DNA of 42,822 nucleotides, from NCBI GenBank assembly GCA_018167975.1, contig GCA_018167975.1_4333.1, one strand, 5' to 3'. The notes under the pieces are model-generated. The model did not search any database, was not told where the DNA came from, and saw only the letters and a program-made list of their open reading frames with translations. Positions 2,759 to 40,078 of the stretch are shown here, piece after piece (the first letter of the stretch is position 1; every line of letters begins with the position of its first letter). Made by a program: the position numbers and the translations under genes. Source of the DNA: a phage.

Positions 2759-3219
2759 AAGTTTATTACCCCGCGTTTGGCGCAACGCCTGTACTCTTCT
2801 CCGTTAGGATAATAATAATCCCACTCGTGTTTGCATTTCTGCGTATCGTTTTTAGGTTTATATTCCTTGTCGTCCCACTCACGCGCACCCCATTCACAGC
2901 AAAACCGACTACCAGGCACGTTATCCTTGTGGCCTTCCGCAATAAACAATCCGGGAGCGATAATCCAATTGTGGTCGCATTCCTGAACGTCTTCTTTACG
3001 GCAACCGGATTGCTCCTGTTTGCGTAGAACTTTGTAAGCCTCAACGTCCCCGTTCATTAACGTTATAGTCCCCATCAACTCGTCAACCACCTCTGACACA
3101 TCACGTAACTGATTCTTAAGTGACTGCACCTCGTGCGCCAGGTCTTCGCACTGGTTGCTATTTACCTGCTGCCGTAACTGGTCAATCAGGTACTCGAATA
3201 CTTCGTTTTTAGTGTTCAT
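2755..3219 (-). CDS. Hypothetical protein with coiled-coil N-terminus and Cys/His-rich C-terminal domain (possible zinc binding)
   Basis: ATG at 3217-3219; C-terminal half has CRKEDVQECDH...FCCEW...CKHEW...RRC pattern. Confidence 0.5.
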   Translation of the reverse strand: MNTKNEVFEYLIDQLRQQVNSNQCEDLAHEVQSLKNQLRDVSEVVDELMGTITLMNGDVEAYKVLRKQEQSGCRKEDVQECDHNWIIAPGLFIAEGHKDNVPGSRFCCEWGAREWDDKEYKPKNDTQKCKHEWDYYYPNGEEYRRCAKRGVINL

Positions 3220-3337: not shown

Positions 3338-3368
3338 CTTTTGTCTCTCCTCTCGTTTGTGTAAATGA

Positions 3369-3397
3369 ATAGTAGCCTATTCTATCTTAGCGTGCAA
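3369..3397 (-). promoter_or_regulatory. Sigma70-like promoter (minus strand): -35 TTGCAC, 17-bp spacer, -10 TACTAT, with AATAG-N4-CTATT palindrome in the spacer
   Basis: rc of 3392-3397 = TTGCAC; rc of 3369-3374 = TACTAT; spacer 17 nt; same design as the promoters at 4831, 26106, 35159 and 37018. Confidence 0.5.
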
Positions 3398-3557
3398 GTA
3401 AATTTTATTGGTGTTTGTATTGTTGCATCTCCTGCAATAGTCGCTTCGATTGTTGCGTTTGGTGAAATAGAACAAAAATGAGAAAAATGATACGCTGCTG
3501 TGTAGCAGCGTAAGTCACAAAGCCAAATAGTAACCTATTGACCTGTTACACCACCTG

Positions 3558-4796: not shown

Positions 4797-4830
4797 AACC
4801 CTCACTCCTCTGTCTCGTTTCGATAAGTGA

Positions 4831-4859
4831 ATAGTATCCTATTATGTTGGGGTGTGCAA
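4831..4859 (-). promoter_or_regulatory. Sigma70-like promoter (minus strand): -35 TTGCAC, 17-bp spacer, -10 TACTAT, with embedded AATAG-N4-CTATT palindrome
   Basis: rc of 4854-4859 = TTGCAC, rc of 4831-4836 = TACTAT; the 37 nt 4824-4860 are an exact reverse-complement copy of 26105-26141. Confidence 0.55.
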
Positions 4860-5195
4860 GAGAATAGTTACGTTGCCGTTGTGATTCTTTCGTGTAATAG
4901 GATAGCGAGCGAAACGAAACGAACGTGGTGCCGAAGGCACCAAGAGTGAGTGAGTGAGCTTGCGAATCAATAACTTATATCATGTGGTAAAATTTAAATA
5001 GACGGGGGCTTTCTTGCGACTTGCTGTTACTTTGAGGAAACTTAGATACTAACGTTGTCGAAGTGACTCTCAGCGCCCGTCCTTCATTGGCCGGGCTTTG
5101 GTCACCAGAGACTTAATAATAATGTTTCTAAGTAATTCTAAACTAAAGTCCTTCGATACGTTGATTTTACAGCTACATTTTATTTTGTCAACAGG

Positions 5196-8338: not shown

Positions 8339-8362
8339 AAAGAAAGGGGCGTTAAGCCCCTT
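8333..8362. terminator. Bidirectional hairpin terminator between convergent genes
   Basis: Stem AGGGGC (8345-8350) / GCCCCT (8356-8361), loop GTTAA; A-rich tract upstream on the plus strand gives a U-tract for the minus-strand (Cro-like gene) transcript. Confidence 0.5.
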
Positions 8363-8567
8363 CACCGAACGCCAGCCACTTGGCGTCTACTTCCAGCACT
8401 TCCGCCAGTTTAAACAGCGTCGCCGGGCGGACGTCCTGAGTTACTCCAAGTGCCAGCTGGTTAATTACGCCCTGGGAAACGCCAGCCAGGACAGCAAGAC
8501 GGCGCTGGGAGATGCCGAGTTCTTTACGACGTTGTTCTACACGGATGCCTAGTTCAGATGGTTGCAT
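8352..8567 (-). CDS. Cro/CI-type (XRE-family) HTH transcriptional regulator
   Basis: 71 aa; ELGISQRRLAVLAGVSQGVINQL is a canonical XRE HTH; AAGGAG RBS; divergently transcribed from the rightward early promoter at 8632-8661. Confidence 0.7.
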   Translation of the reverse strand: MQPSELGIRVEQRRKELGISQRRLAVLAGVSQGVINQLALGVTQDVRPATLFKLAEVLEVDAKWLAFGEGA

Positions 8568-8598
8568 GTCAATTACTCCTTAGTCAGTTGATATGTGA

Positions 8599-8627
8599 AT
8601 AGTACCATATTAATTATTTTAGAAAAG
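8599..8627 (-). promoter_or_regulatory. Candidate promoter of the Cro-like regulator gene (extended -10 TGGTACTAT, weak -35)
   Basis: rc of 8599-8607 = TGGTACTAT (TGn extended -10); spacer region carries a degenerate copy of the AATAG palindrome; back-to-back with the plus-strand promoter. Confidence 0.4.
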
Positions 8628-8631
8628 CCCA

Positions 8632-8661
8632 TTGACAACATGAATAGTTCGCTATTATAGT
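8632..8661 (+). promoter_or_regulatory. Sigma70-like promoter: -35 TTGACA, 18-bp spacer, -10 TATAGT, palindrome AATAGTTCGCTATT in spacer
   Basis: TTGACA 8632-8637, TATAGT 8656-8661; AATAG-N4-CTATT at 8643-8656; followed by GAGGAG RBS and the ATG at 8693. Confidence 0.6.
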
Positions 8662-10923: not shown

Positions 10924-10948
10924 CACCTGAATAGTTAGCTATTATAGT
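10920..10948 (+). promoter_or_regulatory. Sigma70-like promoter: -35 TTGACA, 17-bp spacer, -10 TATAGT, palindrome AATAGTTAGCTATT in spacer
   Basis: TTGACA 10920-10925, TATAGT 10943-10948; upstream of the SSB-like gene. Confidence 0.6.
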
Positions 10949-14780: not shown

Positions 14781-15091
14781 CCCCGGAAGGCAAGATTCAG
14801 AAATACGCAAAAGAGCAATTCGAGGCCATTGGTGGCCTCGTTCGCAAGATGGCATTTGAAGGTCGGCGAGCCGCTATGGACCTCCTGGTAATTCTCCCCG
14901 GAGGCATCATCTGGTTCGTTGAGGTGAAGAAAGACGAAAATACGAAGCCGGAGCCACACCAGCTACGCGAGCATGAAAGATTCCGAAAACGTGGCGCGAA
15001 TGTTTTTGTCGTTGGTTCGTTTAAACAGGTTGACACCCTAATAGCAGACTATTATAGTAAACACATACCCCAACAATATAAGGAATTATAA
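14777..15091 (+). CDS. VRR-NUC domain nuclease (PD-(D/E)XK fold)
   Basis: ORF 14762..15091; ATG at 14777; DLLVILPGGIIWFVEVKK (D...E-V-K catalytic pattern) and the small size fit VRR-NUC. Confidence 0.55.
   Translation: MTPEGKIQKYAKEQFEAIGGLVRKMAFEGRRAAMDLLVILPGGIIWFVEVKKDENTKPEPHQLREHERFRKRGANVFVVGSFKQVDTLIADYYSKHIPQQYKEL
15030..15058 (+). promoter_or_regulatory. Sigma70-like promoter: -35 TTGACA, 17-bp spacer, -10 TATAGT, palindrome AATAGCAGACTATT in spacer
   Basis: TTGACA 15030-15035, TATAGT 15053-15058; lies inside the 3' end of the VRR-NUC gene, upstream of the 15093 gene. Confidence 0.55.
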
Positions 15092-17315: not shown

Positions 17316-17348
17316 AGAAAAGGCCCCGTTTGGGGCCTTAGTTTTATG
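17316..17348. terminator. Bidirectional Rho-independent terminator at convergence of replication (plus) and structural (minus) modules
   Basis: AAGGCCCC-GTTT-GGGGCCTT (17320-17339) followed by TAGTTTTATG on the plus strand and by TTTCTCTACT on the minus strand. Confidence 0.65.
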
Positions 17349-34839: not shown

Positions 34840-35090
34840 GTTTCTCCTTTCTCGATAAGTAAAGCCCCGCCATAAAGCGGGGCGCTAGTCCTTATCATTT
34901 AAACATAGAAACGGCGTAATCTCAGTAAACCAGTTACTTTTTACACAAGCAATAGAGTATGGCCCTTCCGAACGCGTCAGCGTAACTACACTCAGGACTT
35001 ACGTCCCGCTTCGTTACCTGCCCGCGCCGCGGTCGCTTGTTCATACTTCACAAGCTCAGGTGAAGCTTAGCATATTTTTAGTGAAAAGTC

Positions 35091-35106
35091 AACTATTCGA
35101 ATAGTT
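35091..35106. promoter_or_regulatory. Perfect 16-bp palindrome AACTATTCGAATAGTT (candidate regulator binding site)
   Basis: Self-complementary; shares the GAATAG/CTATTC half-site with the promoter-embedded palindromes; lies in the 380-bp intergenic region upstream of Rz and the 35222 moron. Confidence 0.4.
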
Positions 35107-35158
35107 TATTCCGACATTTACAATTGAGGGTAATAACTGGAATACGTAAACAAATAGT

Positions 35159-35187
35159 TTGCACACCCCAACATAATAGGGTACTAT
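35159..35187 (+). promoter_or_regulatory. Sigma70-like promoter: -35 TTGCAC, 17-bp spacer, -10 TACTAT, palindrome AATAGGGTACTATT
   Basis: TTGCAC 35159-35164, TACTAT 35182-35187; near-identical to the promoters at 26106 and 4831 (rc). Confidence 0.6.
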
Positions 35188-35221
35188 TCATTACATCGAA
35201 ACGAGAGATAAGGAATTTAGA

Positions 35222-35441
35222 GATGAACAAAGCTACCGCAAACGTGGTCCGCGCTATCGAAGAACTTTACGGCATTGATATCGCGAGCCGTGTGCTTATC
35301 GGAAACAAACGTAACTTTTTTACCTTTTGCACGGATGGTATGGAAGAGAACGATTTTAACAACGTTCAACGTTTTGCTAACGAACACGGTCTACGCAACG
35401 AGCCAGCAGGTTACAAGAAATTCGCTATATTCTTTAAATAA
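35222..35441 (+). CDS. Hypothetical protein encoded by a rightward moron
   Basis: ORF 35124..35441; ATG at 35222 with AAGGAA RBS; own promoter and terminator; opposite in orientation to the flanking head genes. Confidence 0.5.
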
Positions 35442-35470
35442 AACTAAGGCCCCGAAAGGGGCCTTTTATC
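35442..35470. terminator. Bidirectional Rho-independent terminator between convergent genes
   Basis: AAGGCCCC-GAAA-GGGGCCTT (35446-35465), U-tracts on both strands. Confidence 0.65.
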
Positions 35471-35930
35471 ATTCCGGCTTAGTGACCTTCGCCGCTTTAC
35501 TCACAGCCTCTACACCATCGGCATCAGTAACTTTAACGAAGTATTCGCCCGCAGCGTTAACCGTCAGAGACAAAGCCTCTTCCGGGGCGTTTACCACTTC
35601 CTTACCGTCTTTGTACCAGGTCAGCGCATACGGTGCTTTGCCTGCCTTAACTTCGACAGTGATAGTTGCGCTGCCGTCTGCCAGTTCAGCGTCTTTCGGT
35701 TGCACAGAGAAATACACATCGCCTGCGTCCACCAGATACGGAATCTCGTAAAGCATACCCGCTGCGGGTAGTGCAATACCGGTTTTATCTGCAAAAGGCA
35801 TGTCGTCTACTGGTGTACCTAGTACACTTTCGTCCCCAATAGACACCACGTTCTCACCGGAGCCAGACACACGAGCAAACTGGACTACACGACGTGAAGG
35901 CACATCAGTTACTTTGAAAAAGCCCATCAT
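35469..35930 (-). CDS. Ig-like domain structural protein
   Basis: ATITVEVKAGKAPYALTWYKDGKEV...AGEYFVKVTDADG shows Ig-like pattern; ATGA-type coupling with the head morphogenesis gene. Confidence 0.5.
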   Translation of the reverse strand: MMGFFKVTDVPSRRVVQFARVSGSGENVVSIGDESVLGTPVDDMPFADKTGIALPAAGMLYEIPYLVDAGDVYFSVQPKDAELADGSATITVEVKAGKAPYALTWYKDGKEVVNAPEEALSLTVNAAGEYFVKVTDADGVEAVSKAAKVTKPE

Positions 35931-36973
35931 TAATCCCCTTTCAGATAATCAGCGACACGTTTATCGAGTTCCGCCATCTGCTTAAGCGTGAGCGGATTCC
36001 CGAAACCATCTACAGATATTACGCGAAACTCTTCCGGCGATATACCGCTGTTACGGAAAATCTTACCGCGAACAGGGCCGAGTGCCTCATCGATAAACCA
36101 CGCCGGTTGTTGTTTCAGGAACTCGTAATAGGTTGTGTCCGCGCTTACCTGGGTTCCACCTTCTGCACCCTTAGCTGCGCGTTTTGCGCCCTTATCGAGG
36201 AAGTCGAACTCTGAACTGATTACCGGTGCCGTGGTGCTTCTGCACCCAAAATGGGCCGGAGGCATCGGCCCTTTCCCAATTTCCCACGTCATTCCGTCTC
36301 TCGCCCTGCAAATCGTACTGGTACGGCTGTCCAGTGTTGACACCCACTCGTACCTCTCGATGATATCGTCGTTCTGGCGGTACGTCTCGTTACGTGCTTC
36401 GTTGGATACGTGAGACAGCGCGGTGCGGATTACTGTAGCAGCGTATTTCTCTGATACGTCAGCCAGCCCACCTTTACCGACTACTTCTGTAACAATCTGT
36501 CGTGTTGTCTTACCCTGAACAAAGCCCATCTTAACTCCGGTTACAAGACGTGCTACTTCGGTTTCACCCCATCCCGACATCAGTTTAGTGAAGTCAACAG
36601 GCTTGCCACTTAACGATAACGGCTGAAACTCGGCAGCAGCCCACACCTGTTCGGCGGTAGGAGTAACAAATTCCGTGTCTACGTTGGTGGCCAGCGTCTT
36701 TACGTTCCACTCAGCCTCATACGCCGCCAGCTCCTTAAGGTCTTCTGTCAGCTTTGTTTGCCAGTCACCTGTAAGCCCGGTCAGTGCTTCTTCCAGGTCG
36801 CGTAATAGTTTATTCAGTCGCGAGGTGCTTCGCCCGTCGTCACCGAATAGCAGCACCTGCCGTTTGATTTCATCTCGCATTTCCTGAATGAAGGGTGTGA
36901 GGTCTTTCACTTCCCCGGACGCGGTGCGTTGCATCCATATCTGGTGACTGATTAGAGATGTAAGTAAGCTCAT
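35930..36973 (-). CDS. Head morphogenesis protein (SPP1 gp7 / Mu F-like minor capsid protein)
   Basis: ORF 35930..37030; ATG at 36971-36973 with GGAGG RBS; C-terminal TSTICRARDGMTWEIGKGPMPPAHFGCRSTT is the family hallmark. Confidence 0.75.
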   Translation of the reverse strand: MSLLTSLISHQIWMQRTASGEVKDLTPFIQEMRDEIKRQVLLFGDDGRSTSRLNKLLRDLEEALTGLTGDWQTKLTEDLKELAAYEAEWNVKTLATNVDTEFVTPTAEQVWAAAEFQPLSLSGKPVDFTKLMSGWGETEVARLVTGVKMGFVQGKTTRQIVTEVVGKGGLADVSEKYAATVIRTALSHVSNEARNETYRQNDDIIERYEWVSTLDSRTSTICRARDGMTWEIGKGPMPPAHFGCRSTTAPVISSEFDFLDKGAKRAAKGAEGGTQVSADTTYYEFLKQQPAWFIDEALGPVRGKIFRNSGISPEEFRVISVDGFGNPLTLKQMAELDKRVADYLKGD

Positions 36974-37017
36974 ATGCCCTCCTATAGTACCGCCAGTGTA
37001 ACGCATAAAAATAGTAT

Positions 37018-37046
37018 TTGCAGGCACCAATATAATAGGGTACTAT
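37018..37046 (+). promoter_or_regulatory. Sigma70-like promoter: -35 TTGCAG, 17-bp spacer, -10 TACTAT, palindrome AATAGGGTACTATT
   Basis: TTGCAG 37018-37023, TACTAT 37041-37046; followed by CAGGAGGG RBS and the ATG at 37072. Confidence 0.55.
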
Positions 37047-37071
37047 TCAGTTAACTTAAACAGGAGGGTGT

Positions 37072-37317
37072 ATGCAGGAATTACCTAGTTGCGAACGTGA
37101 GTTCATTGGCGGGTTCATACCGGTTAATAATCTCAGTATATCGGACTTATTTGACCTAAGAGAAAATGGCAGACTTTGGGTGTGCAATGCGAAAGATGCT
37201 TCAAAAGCTAGAGTATGGAACTTTAGTTTAATGCGCCGTCCGAACAAATCTGGCGAAGGTGCTGTCGGTATGGATTTGTTGCAACGCAAAGGTAAGCTAT
37301 TTATGAGAGTGCGATAA
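37072..37317 (+). CDS. Hypothetical protein encoded by a rightward moron
   Basis: 81 aa; own promoter, RBS AGGAGGG and terminator; sits between portal and head morphogenesis genes on the opposite strand. Confidence 0.5.
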   Translation: MQELPSCEREFIGGFIPVNNLSISDLFDLRENGRLWVCNAKDASKARVWNFSLMRRPNKSGEGAVGMDLLQRKGKLFMRVR

Positions 37318-37318
37318 A

Positions 37319-37348
37319 ACTAAGGCCCCTTACGGGGCCTTTTCTCTA
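37319..37348. terminator. Bidirectional Rho-independent terminator
   Basis: AAGGCCCC-TTAC-GGGGCCTT (37322-37341) followed by TTCTCT on plus; overlaps the portal stop codon. Confidence 0.6.
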
Positions 37349-38815
37349 CTCCTGTTGCTGTGCTGACTGCGGAATCTCCCCCGCCACCTGAGTAACAGCG
37401 CCTAACGGCACAGGTGCGTCCTCAATCGCCGTTGTAATCTCCTCGTCGGTCCAGTCAGTTACCCCGGCCTTACGCAGCGCGGAGTAGTAGGCGGTTGCTG
37501 GCAGTAAACCAGCGTTAATGTCTGCCATCCACTGTGCGCGGTCTTGCGCCGTCATCGGTTGCAGGAAGAACTCCATGTTCAGCTTGAACTCAATTTCCGT
37601 GCCTTCGCGCAAGCCCAGCATAGCAGCCACCCAACGCAACGCCTCTGTGTATGCCATGCTTACGTTACGCGCAATGGTTGCCATTACGGATGTATCAGCG
37701 CCACGTTGCAGGCGGGCTGATTCAGCGGTAATCTGCTGCGTCGGCGTGATAAGCTGCGCACCAATCTGGATGGCCTGATTCTCTTTATCCAGCATGTTCT
37801 GTTTGGCGAGGTTGTTCTCTCCGGCCTGAACCAGAAACGCATTGCCGCCGTAACCGATGTTATGGCCTGAGCGCGACCCCATGCGCACGCCGTGAGGGTT
37901 GGCTTCCGCCCACTGTTCCATGCTCATGTTCTCGCCCGGGGCAATAAACAGAGTCGGCTGGCCTACGACAAAGCTGGATTCCTCATTATCTGCGCTGTTG
38001 CGGAAATGCCCAATATTAAGCTCCGCCAACGGCAGCAAAGGGGCGTCGTCGATAGTAGCGTCGTTGTTGCTTGCGCCAATGAACGTGAACGGGATTTTGC
38101 CGCGTAACTGTTCGCCGAGTTCCGGGAAGATTTCGATTACTTCGTCCTGAGCGCCACCCTCGGCATCGAAGCGGTAAATGCGCTGGCGGTAGCGACCATC
38201 AATCAGGTCGAGGACACGATATTGCTCACCGAACTTGGTTTCGAACTCTGCACCAGGTTCTGAGTATTCCCATACTTCGCGCAACACGACCATAGTCACA
38301 CGGTTAACTGAACCGACGCGTGTCAGCCGCCAGTTGATGATGTTCTCCGCGGTATAGAATGCGATGACCGGGTTTAATAATCCCGCGTTCTGCTCCGCCG
38401 CCGTTGCTGCGGCTGTCTCCGGGGCGTCCACCAGCAACCCACCGCGGCCTACCGAGTCAATCTCCATTAGCGTATCCTGCGCGTGCTGCCACAGCCCGAC
38501 GCCCGAACCGTCGGCATTACGTAACAGGTACCCCAGTTCAGGCGGAATAATCTGTTCAGGGTCTTTGCGCATCACCGACCCAACCATCCCCGCCAGGGTA
38601 CGTTTGGTGAAGTTGTAGCAGATAGCGCCGTTCTCGTATTCTTCCTGGCGCTGCGCCGCGTAGGTAGGGTCAGGCTCGTTCTTCCCGACATTGCGCAGAT
38701 AACGAATAAGGTCGCCTTCCAGCGCATGACGTACCTTCTGCCATTTATCGAAGTGATGCAGCCATTCCCGGTGTTTTGTCTTAACACCCTGATTCTGACC
38801 GTTCATAGTTAACAT
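37346..38815 (-). CDS. Portal protein
   Basis: 489 aa directly downstream of the large terminase gene; AGAGGA RBS; assignment by synteny and size. Confidence 0.75.
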   Translation of the reverse strand: MLTMNGQNQGVKTKHREWLHHFDKWQKVRHALEGDLIRYLRNVGKNEPDPTYAAQRQEEYENGAICYNFTKRTLAGMVGSVMRKDPEQIIPPELGYLLRNADGSGVGLWQHAQDTLMEIDSVGRGGLLVDAPETAAATAAEQNAGLLNPVIAFYTAENIINWRLTRVGSVNRVTMVVLREVWEYSEPGAEFETKFGEQYRVLDLIDGRYRQRIYRFDAEGGAQDEVIEIFPELGEQLRGKIPFTFIGASNNDATIDDAPLLPLAELNIGHFRNSADNEESSFVVGQPTLFIAPGENMSMEQWAEANPHGVRMGSRSGHNIGYGGNAFLVQAGENNLAKQNMLDKENQAIQIGAQLITPTQQITAESARLQRGADTSVMATIARNVSMAYTEALRWVAAMLGLREGTEIEFKLNMEFFLQPMTAQDRAQWMADINAGLLPATAYYSALRKAGVTDWTDEEITTAIEDAPVPLGAVTQVAGEIPQSAQQQE

Positions 38816-38827
38816 TGAATAATCCTC

Positions 38828-40078
38828 TTAAAGTGCGAAAGTCACCGGGATGTTGATTACTGGTTTAACCACCGGCATCTCGTAAACTACAGGATAGCCG
38901 AGAGCATCCGCCATATGGTCGATGATGCCGTCTTTGGACGGCTCCCCGTTATCGTCGTAAGCCTGCTGCTCCAGCGTCTTGGCTATCTCAGGGCATAAGT
39001 GGTCGTTAACCCACAGCTTACCTTTTTCCAGCGCTGTATTCACGGCCAAAACACGGTCTTTAACCGGGGGGTTGGCAGATTTAGCGCGAACATCGAACCC
39101 GGCCTGCTGGAGTAACGCAATATCAGAGATTGACGCCGAGTTGGTTTTGCGGTTCTTGCCGCTTGCGTCAGGGTAAACGACGATGCGGTGACCTTGCGAC
39201 TTCCACTTCTCGGTAATTACGCGCACGGTGTCCGGCGTATCGAACAGGCCTTTCAGTTCTGCCACCGCGTGCCAGCCGTCTTTACGCTGCACATACACGG
39301 CGCTGGCGTTCTTCGTAACGTTGAAGTCCTGCCCGATGTACAGCGTGTCGCCAGGTTGAATTGTCTCTTTGCTGCGGTGCTTACGGCGGTCGTACGCGTA
39401 ATACACGCTGCCGGATGTCAGGTTGACGAACTCACCGTTCAGATATGCGTTAATCAACTGCGCCGGGTAAGTCTCTGTCAGCGAGCTAATGTAATCCGGC
39501 GGCAGGAATCGCGCGTTCTCATGAGTTGATGCCTGCACCATCGAGTAGCTCGGCGTCGGATTCTCTTTGAACTTGGCGTAGACGAACTTGAACCCTTCCG
39601 GCGTCGTGGTTACAGAGATGTGGTTGGTTACGCCAGGAATAACAAGACGCATACGGGCTACGATTTTGTTCCACGCCAGCTCGGCTTTCTCGCGGCTCAG
39701 TACATCTAGCTCATCCACGACCGCAGCGGCGATTTTGAAACCCACAATCGAACCAGGGTTATCCATCGAACGGCAGATAACGGTCCCGAGCACAGTCTTA
39801 CCGCGAGTAACCACGACTTCTTTGTCGCCGGATTTAACCAGCACATCGAGGCCTAGCAGGTTAGCCGCTTCCTCAAATGTCGGGTAGAAGATGTCACGAA
39901 TAGCTGGGTATGTTGGGCCGAAGTAGCCCAGGCGCGTACCTGGATGCTTGAGCATAAACGTAAGCAGGTCAAGGCAGCCTACGAATGTCTTTCCGCTGCC
40001 GAAGCCCCCGACATAGGCTTTGTACTTGTTATCGCAATTCAGGAACAGTGCCTGTGGTGCGGATAGCTGAATACTCAT
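38828..40078 (-). CDS. Terminase large subunit
   Basis: Walker A VGGFGSGKT, Walker B AAVVDELD, C-terminal nuclease region; 416 aa. Confidence 0.9.
   Translation of the reverse strand: MSIQLSAPQALFLNCDNKYKAYVGGFGSGKTFVGCLDLLTFMLKHPGTRLGYFGPTYPAIRDIFYPTFEEAANLLGLDVLVKSGDKEVVVTRGKTVLGTVICRSMDNPGSIVGFKIAAAVVDELDVLSREKAELAWNKIVARMRLVIPGVTNHISVTTTPEGFKFVYAKFKENPTPSYSMVQASTHENARFLPPDYISSLTETYPAQLINAYLNGEFVNLTSGSVYYAYDRRKHRSKETIQPGDTLYIGQDFNVTKNASAVYVQRKDGWHAVAELKGLFDTPDTVRVITEKWKSQGHRIVVYPDASGKNRKTNSASISDIALLQQAGFDVRAKSANPPVKDRVLAVNTALEKGKLWVNDHLCPEIAKTLEQQAYDDNGEPSKDGIIDHMADALGYPVVYEMPVVKPVINIPVTFAL

Follow-up and report, generated by a model that had tools for sequence, protein, structure and literature searches.

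The segment at positions 37017–37348 of phage contig GCA_018167975.1_4333.1 (42,822 nucleotides (nt) in all, referred to here as the window) is probably an autonomous accessory-gene cassette, a moron in the sense of Hendrix, lying in opposite orientation at the junction between the portal and head-morphogenesis genes. We hold this reading, which includes the function of its promoter and terminator and the shuffling of its contents, with good confidence. The genome in the window is of the type of a Kagunavirus (Guernseyvirinae) siphovirus, ~43 kb long. The original prediction named a promoter, a ribosome-binding site, an 81-amino-acid (aa) gene and a hairpin, and all four can be read in the sequence, as set out below. 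Taken alone the locus would be an ordinary moron; what would be new, and is moderately interesting, is a genus-wide system of such cassettes. The portal/head-morphogenesis junction is called slot A, and the junction between the Hoc-like and i-spanin genes slot B.

36974–37016, no strand assigned: left arm of the occupied slot A, holding the 5′ untranslated region (5′UTR) and Shine–Dalgarno (SD) sequence of the head-morphogenesis gene (minus strand) and an AT-rich stretch upstream of the cassette promoter
37017–37343, plus strand: cassette A, with the same promoter and hairpin as two sister cassettes and the 81-aa gene
37017–37049, plus strand: candidate cassette promoter, with −35 TTGCAG (37018–37023), a 17-nt spacer and −10 TACTAT (37041–37046)
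37062–37068, plus strand: SD sequence AGGAGGG, 3 nt before the ATG, retained in the slot B copies of the 81-aa gene
37072–37317, plus strand: 81-aa gene, ATG start, stop codon TAA at 37315–37317
37314–37348, no strand assigned: putative two-way intrinsic-terminator module, reading TAA, AACT, AAGGCCCC (37322–37329), TTAC, GGGGCCTT (37334–37341), TTCT, CTA

Comparison with related loci shows that the junction can be either empty or filled. The window was set beside 48 IMG/VR loci encoding the head-morphogenesis protein and four GenBank relatives, with the neighbouring genes as anchors, and slot A could be measured in 51 loci. No insert is present in 32 of these, most of which have a junction of 69 bp; 26 of the 32 contain a weaker hairpin, AGCCCC-TTTC-GGGGCT. 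The other 19 hold varied cargo, 197–1473 bp long and antisense to the structural genes, with the promoter in 14 and the hairpin right arm ATAAAACTAAGGCCCC-N4-GGGGCCTTTT in 17, plus one imperfect copy. The gap between the portal and head-morphogenesis genes in the window is 372 bp. The frequent absence of an insert, the possession of its own copy of a repeated promoter and terminator, and the presence of the gene at other positions in relatives together uphold the earlier description of a single-gene moron.

The ends of the 19 occupied slots show that the left arm, 36974–37016, is kept among slot A cassettes with unrelated cargo and is unlike the 69-bp insert-free junction. It gives the head-morphogenesis gene a stronger SD sequence (AGGAGGG, the reverse complement of 36977–36983, preceding the ATG at 36973) than the CAGGG of the insert-free junction. 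Most of the 76 phage records that megablast matched to 36900–37450 are from Kagunavirus-like phages of Escherichia and Salmonella, and query coverage is below 80% in all; 36900–37066 matches phages with other cargo at 89–96% identity. Slot B is filled in 33 of 43 loci, with the promoter in 27 and the hairpin in 32, and the two slots share five cargo families. Recognisable cargo in the slots includes an N6/N4 DNA methylase, a Vut_1 transporter and a T4 Imm-type superinfection immunity protein; sub-threshold matches are to PAPS-reductase, KilA-N and metallophosphatase domains.

The cassette promoter went unreported in a generic sigma-70 scan; that it is non-random follows from the repeat analysis of the window, where its copies are in excess. 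The 18-mer core ATAATAGGGTACTATTCA has 8 matches at up to three mismatches against 0.07 expected, and five full copies of (c/t)TTGCAx-N17-TACTAT-TCA lie at 3366 (minus), 4828 (minus), 26105 (plus), 35158 (plus) and 37017 (plus), each followed within ~20–45 nt by an SD sequence and an ATG. The cassette copy sits correctly ahead of its SD sequence and start codon. It contains the inverted repeat AATAG-N4-CTATT (37034–37047), which spans the −10 and is a candidate operator, promoter and operator function both being predicted from sequence. The inverted repeat has 9 copies in the window against 0.04 expected. The promoter motif is also found in the relative Shashou, where there are 8 copies of AATAG-N4-CTATT. 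PHIRE detected the same promoter repeat in fBC-Eco01, and it was credited there to an RNA polymerase of the phage (PMC9825357). The careful annotation of Shashou lists no RNA polymerase gene, and the host sigma-70 polymerase is therefore the likelier user of these promoters. Read in the opposite direction the class I promoters offer no −35, and their interpretation as promoters of the TTGACA type was rejected.

The hairpin at 37322–37341 has an 8-bp GC stem and a 4-nt loop, and it begins 4 nt past the stop codon of the 81-aa gene. Exact-stem copies of AAGGCCCC-N4-GGGGCCTT occur at four positions (17320, 27937, 35446 and 37322); at up to two mismatches there are 5 matches in the window against 0.01 expected. 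Extended flanks, ATAAAACT...TTTTCTCTAC, are common to all copies and carry the stop codons of convergent genes. The ATAAAACT arm holds TAA in three of the four copies, and the other arm holds, in all four, CTA or TCA (reverse complements of TAG and TGA) or, in two oppositely oriented copies, TAG or TGA directly. Over 51 nt around the hairpin the folding energy is −18.3 kcal/mol (z = −4.1) on the plus strand and −20.6 kcal/mol (z = −3.5) on the minus strand.

The predicted bidirectional action of the hairpin is consistent with a GC stem followed by a U-run on both strands. The two sides are unequal: on weights after d'Aubenton-Carafa-style schemes, which allow a rough ranking only, the stronger U-tract UUUUCUCU (3.72) faces the cargo strand and the weaker UUAGUUUUAU (2.72) faces the late strand. 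The minus-strand reading was called terminator-like by the scan, and the plus-strand reading (the stem, then TTTTCTCT) was taken from the sequence. The hairpin had also been said to overlap the portal stop codon. This holds for the U-tract TTTTCTCT (37340–37347) but not for the stem, which ends 4 nt short of the TAG (37348–37346).

Three opposite-strand cassettes inside the structural module (A, B and C) are delimited by the same promoter and hairpin. The remaining copies of the repeats are found elsewhere in the window, and the features concerned are as follows.

35158–35465, plus strand: sister cassette B, between the Hoc-like and i-spanin genes, with promoter 35158–35190, a 72-aa gene at 35223–35441 (phrog_7673) and hairpin 35446–35465
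26105–27956, plus strand: sister cassette C, between the tail-chaperone and tail-tube genes, with promoter 26105–26137, four genes and hairpin 27937–27956
17320–17339, no strand assigned: fourth hairpin copy, where the replication and tail modules converge
4828–4860, minus strand: promoter copy heading the small-ORF operon, the position at which NTEC3-type phages carry an 81-aa homologue as second gene
3366–3398, minus strand: promoter copy inside the small-ORF/lysis strand
8352–8567, minus strand: Cro-like HTH_3 gene, 71 aa, flanked by two AATAG-N4-CTATT copies

Cassette C encodes a 63-aa Imm_superinfect protein (T4 Imm-type), a 376-aa metallophosphatase-like protein and products of 76 and 72 aa; the 376-aa gene is found in slot B in contigs L043 and L044. 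Inverted-repeat sites around and beyond the Cro-like gene lie at 8596–8613, 8641–8658, 10928–10945 and 15040–15053. Beyond the five full promoter copies, the replication strand has three TTGACA-N17/18-TATAGT promoters, close to consensus, with the repeat in their spacers. This distribution suggests a single regulator/operator circuit touching all promoter classes. By its position the Cro-like helix-turn-helix (HTH) protein is the obvious candidate to bind AATAG-N4-CTATT, an assignment made with low confidence. An Rfam search with the slot B GGCCCC hairpin (35427–35468, minus strand) gave only a sub-threshold Histone3 stem-loop match, 25.2 bits against a gathering threshold of 34, which we regard as a spurious chance resemblance.

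Slot A of contig L035 (1473 bp) carries three genes, including a Vut_1-family transporter and a 244-aa protein without a Pfam match; as a guess, the latter may belong to a 7-deazaguanine DNA-modification pathway. The KilA-N-like slot A cassettes of L011 and L037 have a promoter of another kind, belonging to them alone and overlapping with long palindromes (such as AATTCTACATTCAAATGTAGAATT), which suggests a separately regulated unit.

Judged by its conservation, the 81-codon open reading frame (ORF) of cassette A is a gene for a conserved protein, and the sense frame is its coding frame. The protein has 18 homologous clusters at 78–98% identity and a second branch of homologues at ~35% identity; residues invariant in both branches include M-R-x-P-N-K-S-G-x-G. 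The ratio of nonsynonymous to synonymous substitution rates (dN/dS) between the gene and its copy in phage RP180 is 0.09. A competing view is that the real gene is an antisense ORF on the late strand (37289–37056, 77 aa) that shares a transcript with the portal and head genes, and that the 81-aa frame is its shadow. The antisense frame is open in every homologue, and the annotators of RP180 chose that strand. Codon-position counts were considered as an arbiter and set aside as uninformative, because both frames have their third codon positions in common. Comparison with the NTEC3-type copies, however, gives 76–78% identity in the sense frame against 62–68% in the antisense frame, and the homologue in Salmonella phage TS6 is detected in the sense frame only. 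The sense ORF is co-directional with more than ten neighbours in NTEC3, phiSD1 and VIPECOMC04, and its start there overlaps the upstream stop. It also begins with an ATG behind AGGAGGG, whereas the antisense ORF would begin with TTG and no SD sequence, and it is the sense strand that has the promoter and the better side of the terminator. Cross-lineage identity and gene context settle the choice of frame, and an antisense gene is extremely improbable.

A further alternative is that the cassette is a decaying, unexpressed relic of recombination, or that the hairpin acts mainly to stabilise the mRNA 3′ end of the portal transcript. Insert-free slots hold an apparent degenerate promoter core beside a hairpin (TTAATAGCATACTAT...AGCCCCTTTCGGGGCT), and so decay of such units does occur. 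In the window, by contrast, promoter, SD sequence, ORF and hairpin are all intact, the dN/dS value is low, and the identical protein is encoded on 24 independent metagenome contigs. A relic, or a hairpin that mainly stabilises mRNA, is very unlikely here, and a functional cassette remains the preferred reading.

The product is a basic protein of 9.3 kDa (pI 9.9). AlphaFold, given a 16-sequence alignment spanning both branches, predicts an α-β-α-β-β-α-β domain with a pLDDT of 86 and a pTM of 0.73. The protein has no match in Pfam, PHROGs, NCBIfam or PDB sequences; the best Foldseek hits in BFVD (E = 3.9e-3) are to uncharacterised phage proteins and give no fold match, an exhaustive HMMER pass over 1.84 billion representatives returned two clusters only, and no paralogue was found elsewhere in the window. 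The homology search proposed with the original prediction thus yielded conserved homologues but no known family or fold, and the protein is an ORFan. Guessing from the genes that share the slots, rather than from any property of the protein, it is most probably a dispensable host-interaction, anti-defence, host-takeover or exclusion-type factor.

The positions of the gene in relatives indicate that the unit moves. In phages GZMU_E2010 (96% protein identity) and RP180 (94%) it occupies slot B and not slot A. Contig L063, with a slot A gap of ~69 bp, has a 98%-identical protein (P0001) in slot B, and L064–L067 have it in slot A. For the exact protein of the window, on the 24 metagenome contigs, each of the six contexts shown places it in slot A, with slot B cargo that varies from one to another. 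Homology between slot A and slot B copies of the unit starts at the −35, covers the cargo and stops where the hairpin ends. The 5′UTR from −10 to the SD sequence tracks the slot, not the cargo, although some slot A cassettes have a UTR of the slot B type. Such a mosaic pattern is what would be expected from homologous recombination at different points in the repeated regulatory DNA.

More distant copies have moved further. In NTEC3, phiSD1 and VIPECOMC04 the 76–78% homologue is the second gene of a small-ORF operon that diverges from the helicase gene. TS6 carries a ~36% homologue as a single-gene unit composed of TTGACA-N17-TAATAT, a AACTTAAACAGGAG leader, the ORF and a hairpin; by gene order it lies between apparent scaffold and spanin genes, annotated there as hypothetical only. 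The last codons of the TS6 homologue (…V-K-A-P-stop) are encoded by the hairpin itself. Unrelated cargo ORFs that end in …K-A-P-stop were also seen in slot A of L019, L035, L026 and L004 and at 3200–3235 of L007. In these ORFs the last codons are the 5′ hairpin arm (AAG GCC CCn), with the stop in the loop. Because the TS6 homologue and several unrelated cargo ORFs end inside it, the hairpin appears to be a recombination junction.

The original prediction held that leftward late transcription must read through the hairpin or reinitiate if the head-morphogenesis gene is to be expressed, which hinted at antitermination or an internal late promoter. That late transcription has to pass the hairpin is reasonable. 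The moron did not create this problem, however, since insert-free relatives also carry a hairpin and U-tract after the portal gene: on their late strand AGCCCC-GAAA-GGGGCU is followed by UUCUUAUAGU, and the tail UUUCUUAUAGU scores 3.47 on the rough scale used above. No promoter is recognisable in the remaining ~40 nt of those junctions, yet the head-morphogenesis gene must be expressed. The hairpins at 17320 and 27937 have their strong side facing the late strand and stand at the ends of late transcription units. From the asymmetry of the U-tracts and the arrangement in relatives, partial read-through, the hairpin serving as a leaky attenuator, would be the most economical explanation.

An internal late promoter was predicted at slot A, where there is only a weak candidate; a conserved late-strand promoter-like site does exist, ~1.9 kb further down, in the constant part of slot B. 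This site, TTGACT-N14-TGn-TAAGCT (slot B region 34864–35105, minus strand), is abutted by a perfect 16-bp palindrome, AACTATTCGAATAGTT, and lies ahead of the spanin, scaffold and capsid genes. Next come a GC-rich leader of ~180 nt (34884–35058), in which a CGGAAGG core is invariant, and a hairpin and U-tract (34883–34864) ~25 nt before the i-spanin ATG. RNAalifold on the full leader alignment was degraded by misaligned divergent lineages, and the core of the main lineage alone was counted; it shows four compensatory pair changes, all from one lineage, a number reached in none of 500 shuffles. The leader has no Rfam match. It has the appearance of a leader of the attenuator or antitermination type, serving the spanin–scaffold–capsid operon. 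With an internal promoter-like site at slot B, the structural module would therefore be split into several transcription units, which favours an internal late promoter as a general notion though not at the place originally proposed.

Two alternatives to read-through have to be weighed against these observations. A dedicated late-strand promoter in the left arm (CTGCAA at 37023–37018, 17 nt, TACACT at 37000–36995) might express the head-morphogenesis and Hoc-like genes, with the hairpin an efficient stop for the portal transcript; this corresponds to the reinitiation named in the original prediction. Conservation of the left arm (36974–37016) across occupied slot A cassettes with different cargo is in keeping with such a promoter, as are the AGGAGGG that the arm supplies in place of CAGGG and the apparent use of an internal late-strand promoter at slot B. 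The candidate nevertheless agrees with the consensus at 7 of 12 positions and was unreported by the scan, and relatives with the 69-bp junction, which has a hairpin and no recognisable promoter, must express the same gene; a promoter here is doubtful. Processive antitermination, mediated by a protein or an RNA as with lambda Q or N or HK022 put, would carry polymerase across all such obstacles, of which at least four, in the form of U-tract hairpins, interrupt the late strand. The conserved structured leader between the slot B promoter-like site and its terminator, with its four compensatory changes, speaks for this reading. This leader, however, is downstream of slot A on the late strand and so cannot act on polymerase arriving from the terminase promoter. 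Neither a Q-like nor an N-like protein is annotated in Shashou; in addition, the leader goes unmatched in Rfam and its compensatory changes come from a single lineage. Such antitermination is unlikely, more so than a left-arm promoter, and leaky attenuation is preferred to both.

In the working of the cassette that we propose, host sigma-70 polymerase would start at about 37053 from the repeated promoter TTGCAG-N17-TACTAT and produce a monocistronic mRNA of ~290 nt, whose strong SD sequence would direct synthesis of the basic α/β protein. Transcription of the cargo would stop at the GC hairpin, which has its better U-tract on that side. The operator-like repeat across the −10 probably places the cassette under a regulator common to the other promoters of the phage, and the Cro-like HTH protein (8352–8567) may, with low confidence, be that regulator. 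On the late strand the hairpin would most likely be a leaky attenuator, allowing part of the terminase–portal transcript to continue into the head-morphogenesis and Hoc-like genes. The promoter, the 5′UTR and SD region and the terminator arms would act as repeated recombination arms, by which cargo is swapped among at least three antisense slots and the small-ORF operon.

Several points weigh against this scheme. The hexamers of the cassette promoter are weak by the sigma-70 consensus, agreeing at 3 of 6 positions (−35) and 4 of 6 (−10). The one Kagunavirus RNA-seq study found placed a superinfection-immunity gene, cargo of the slot C type, in its 'late' class (PMC12645636), which fits poorly with a simple 'early promoter' label; the time resolution and annotation of that study are too coarse to place the cassette itself (PMC12645636). 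Two of the promoter copies precede operons that, in the Shashou map, extend to lysis genes as well, and this makes the temporal class of the promoter uncertain. Read-through of the hairpin on the late strand is deduced from the arrangement in relatives, and it is position that suggests a link between the operator and the Cro-like protein.

The likeness to the morons of lambdoid and HK97-like phages, reportedly described by Juhala, Hendrix and colleagues in 2000, is considerable in layout. In both cases extra DNA, consisting of a promoter, one gene and a terminator, stands between genes that are adjacent in relatives; it is found in the late or structural region, and its cargo is unrelated to virion assembly. 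Here the insertion and the terminator are present at the sequence level, and the promoter is a correctly placed sequence copy. Unlike classic morons, the cassette resides in a virulent phage, and its signals are copies of phage repeats found throughout the genome rather than private ones. The rationale of expression from a prophage is probably inapplicable, since no integrase is annotated in Shashou and no lysogeny genes are reported for Golestan or fBC-Eco01 (for fBC-Eco01, PMC9825357).

Mechanistically, the cassette most resembles the promoter-early stem-loops (PeSLs) known from T4-type phages, which are regulatory cassettes that move and thereby shuffle modules (Arbiol et al. 2010, PMC2839356; Comeau et al. 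2014, PMC4122927). The two systems have in common sigma-70-like promoter and GC stem-loop motifs repeated beside ORFans and variable genes; in the window the promoter has five full copies and the hairpin four, well in excess of chance. In both, breakpoints of insertion, deletion or replacement match the motifs; here homology extends from the −35 to the hairpin and different cargo lies between the same arms. The stem-loop is a terminator or attenuator that insulates neighbouring genes (a predicted role here), and some copies are inside virion modules, including next to hoc. The systems differ in that promoter and stem-loop here flank the cargo; only in the 69-bp insert-free slot does a degenerate promoter core lead directly into the hairpin. 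The present cassettes are also antisense to the surrounding essential operon, their terminator arms embed the stops of both convergent genes, their promoter holds a palindromic operator-like repeat, and their host is a 43-kb siphovirus rather than a T4-like myovirus.

Bidirectional intrinsic terminators are known at convergent gene junctions in bacteria and phages. The hairpin of cassette A is like them in its GC-rich stem (6–8 bp in such elements), tetraloop and flanking A- and T-tracts, which give a hairpin and U-run on both strands. It is unlike the usual examples in its unequal U-tracts (UUUUCUCU against UUAGUUUUAU) and in the fourfold repetition of a whole module of ~35 nt, embedded stops included, within one 43-kb genome.

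It is possible that the cassettes form a plug-and-play system in the Kagunavirus/Guernseyvirinae group, in which one operator-bearing promoter type and a 'double-stop' two-way terminator serve both as expression signals and as recombination arms, so that genes hop among antisense pads and the small-ORF operon and are wired automatically into phage regulation. This proposal is tentative, the balance tipping slightly against it. A literature search found no description of a cassette system in Kagunavirus or Guernseyvirinae. If the proposal is true, the system would be a siphovirus counterpart of the T4 PeSLs, with antisense placement and shared operator control in addition. The cassette logic, if it holds, would explain the turnover of accessory genes in small virulent coliphages, among them DNA methylases, candidate DNA-modification genes, genes for superinfection exclusion and ORFans, with the essential operon left undisturbed. 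Kagunavirus phages already serve as small synthetic-biology and therapy chassis, and the slots would be natural, tolerated insertion sites with ready promoter and terminator arms, useful for engineering them. The 81-aa family, a mobile conserved ORFan, would be worth testing for anti-defence or host-takeover activity.

The genes around the cassette are arranged as follows, all on the late strand.

38828–40078, minus strand: terminase large subunit
37346–38815, minus strand: portal, 489 aa, right neighbour of the cassette (DUF4055, 4.8e-24; phrog_145, 3e-147)
35930–36973, minus strand: Mu F-like head-morphogenesis protein, 347 aa, left neighbour (Pfam Phage_Mu_F, 8.9e-12; phrog_241, 1e-149)
35469–35930, minus strand: Hoc-like decoration protein

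This neighbourhood varies in several further respects. The head-morphogenesis gene has a 347-aa form in the window, Shashou and UTEC10 and a form of ~600–620 aa in RP180, GZMU_E2010 and several contigs; the long form pairs with an insert-free slot A in L001, L002 and L046–L049. In one contig (L059, 4249–4863) the terminase and portal genes are separated by a gene for an HNH_3 endonuclease. An extra same-strand gene is found between the head-morphogenesis and Hoc-like genes in L062 (665–1234; 189 aa), L029 and L031–L033.

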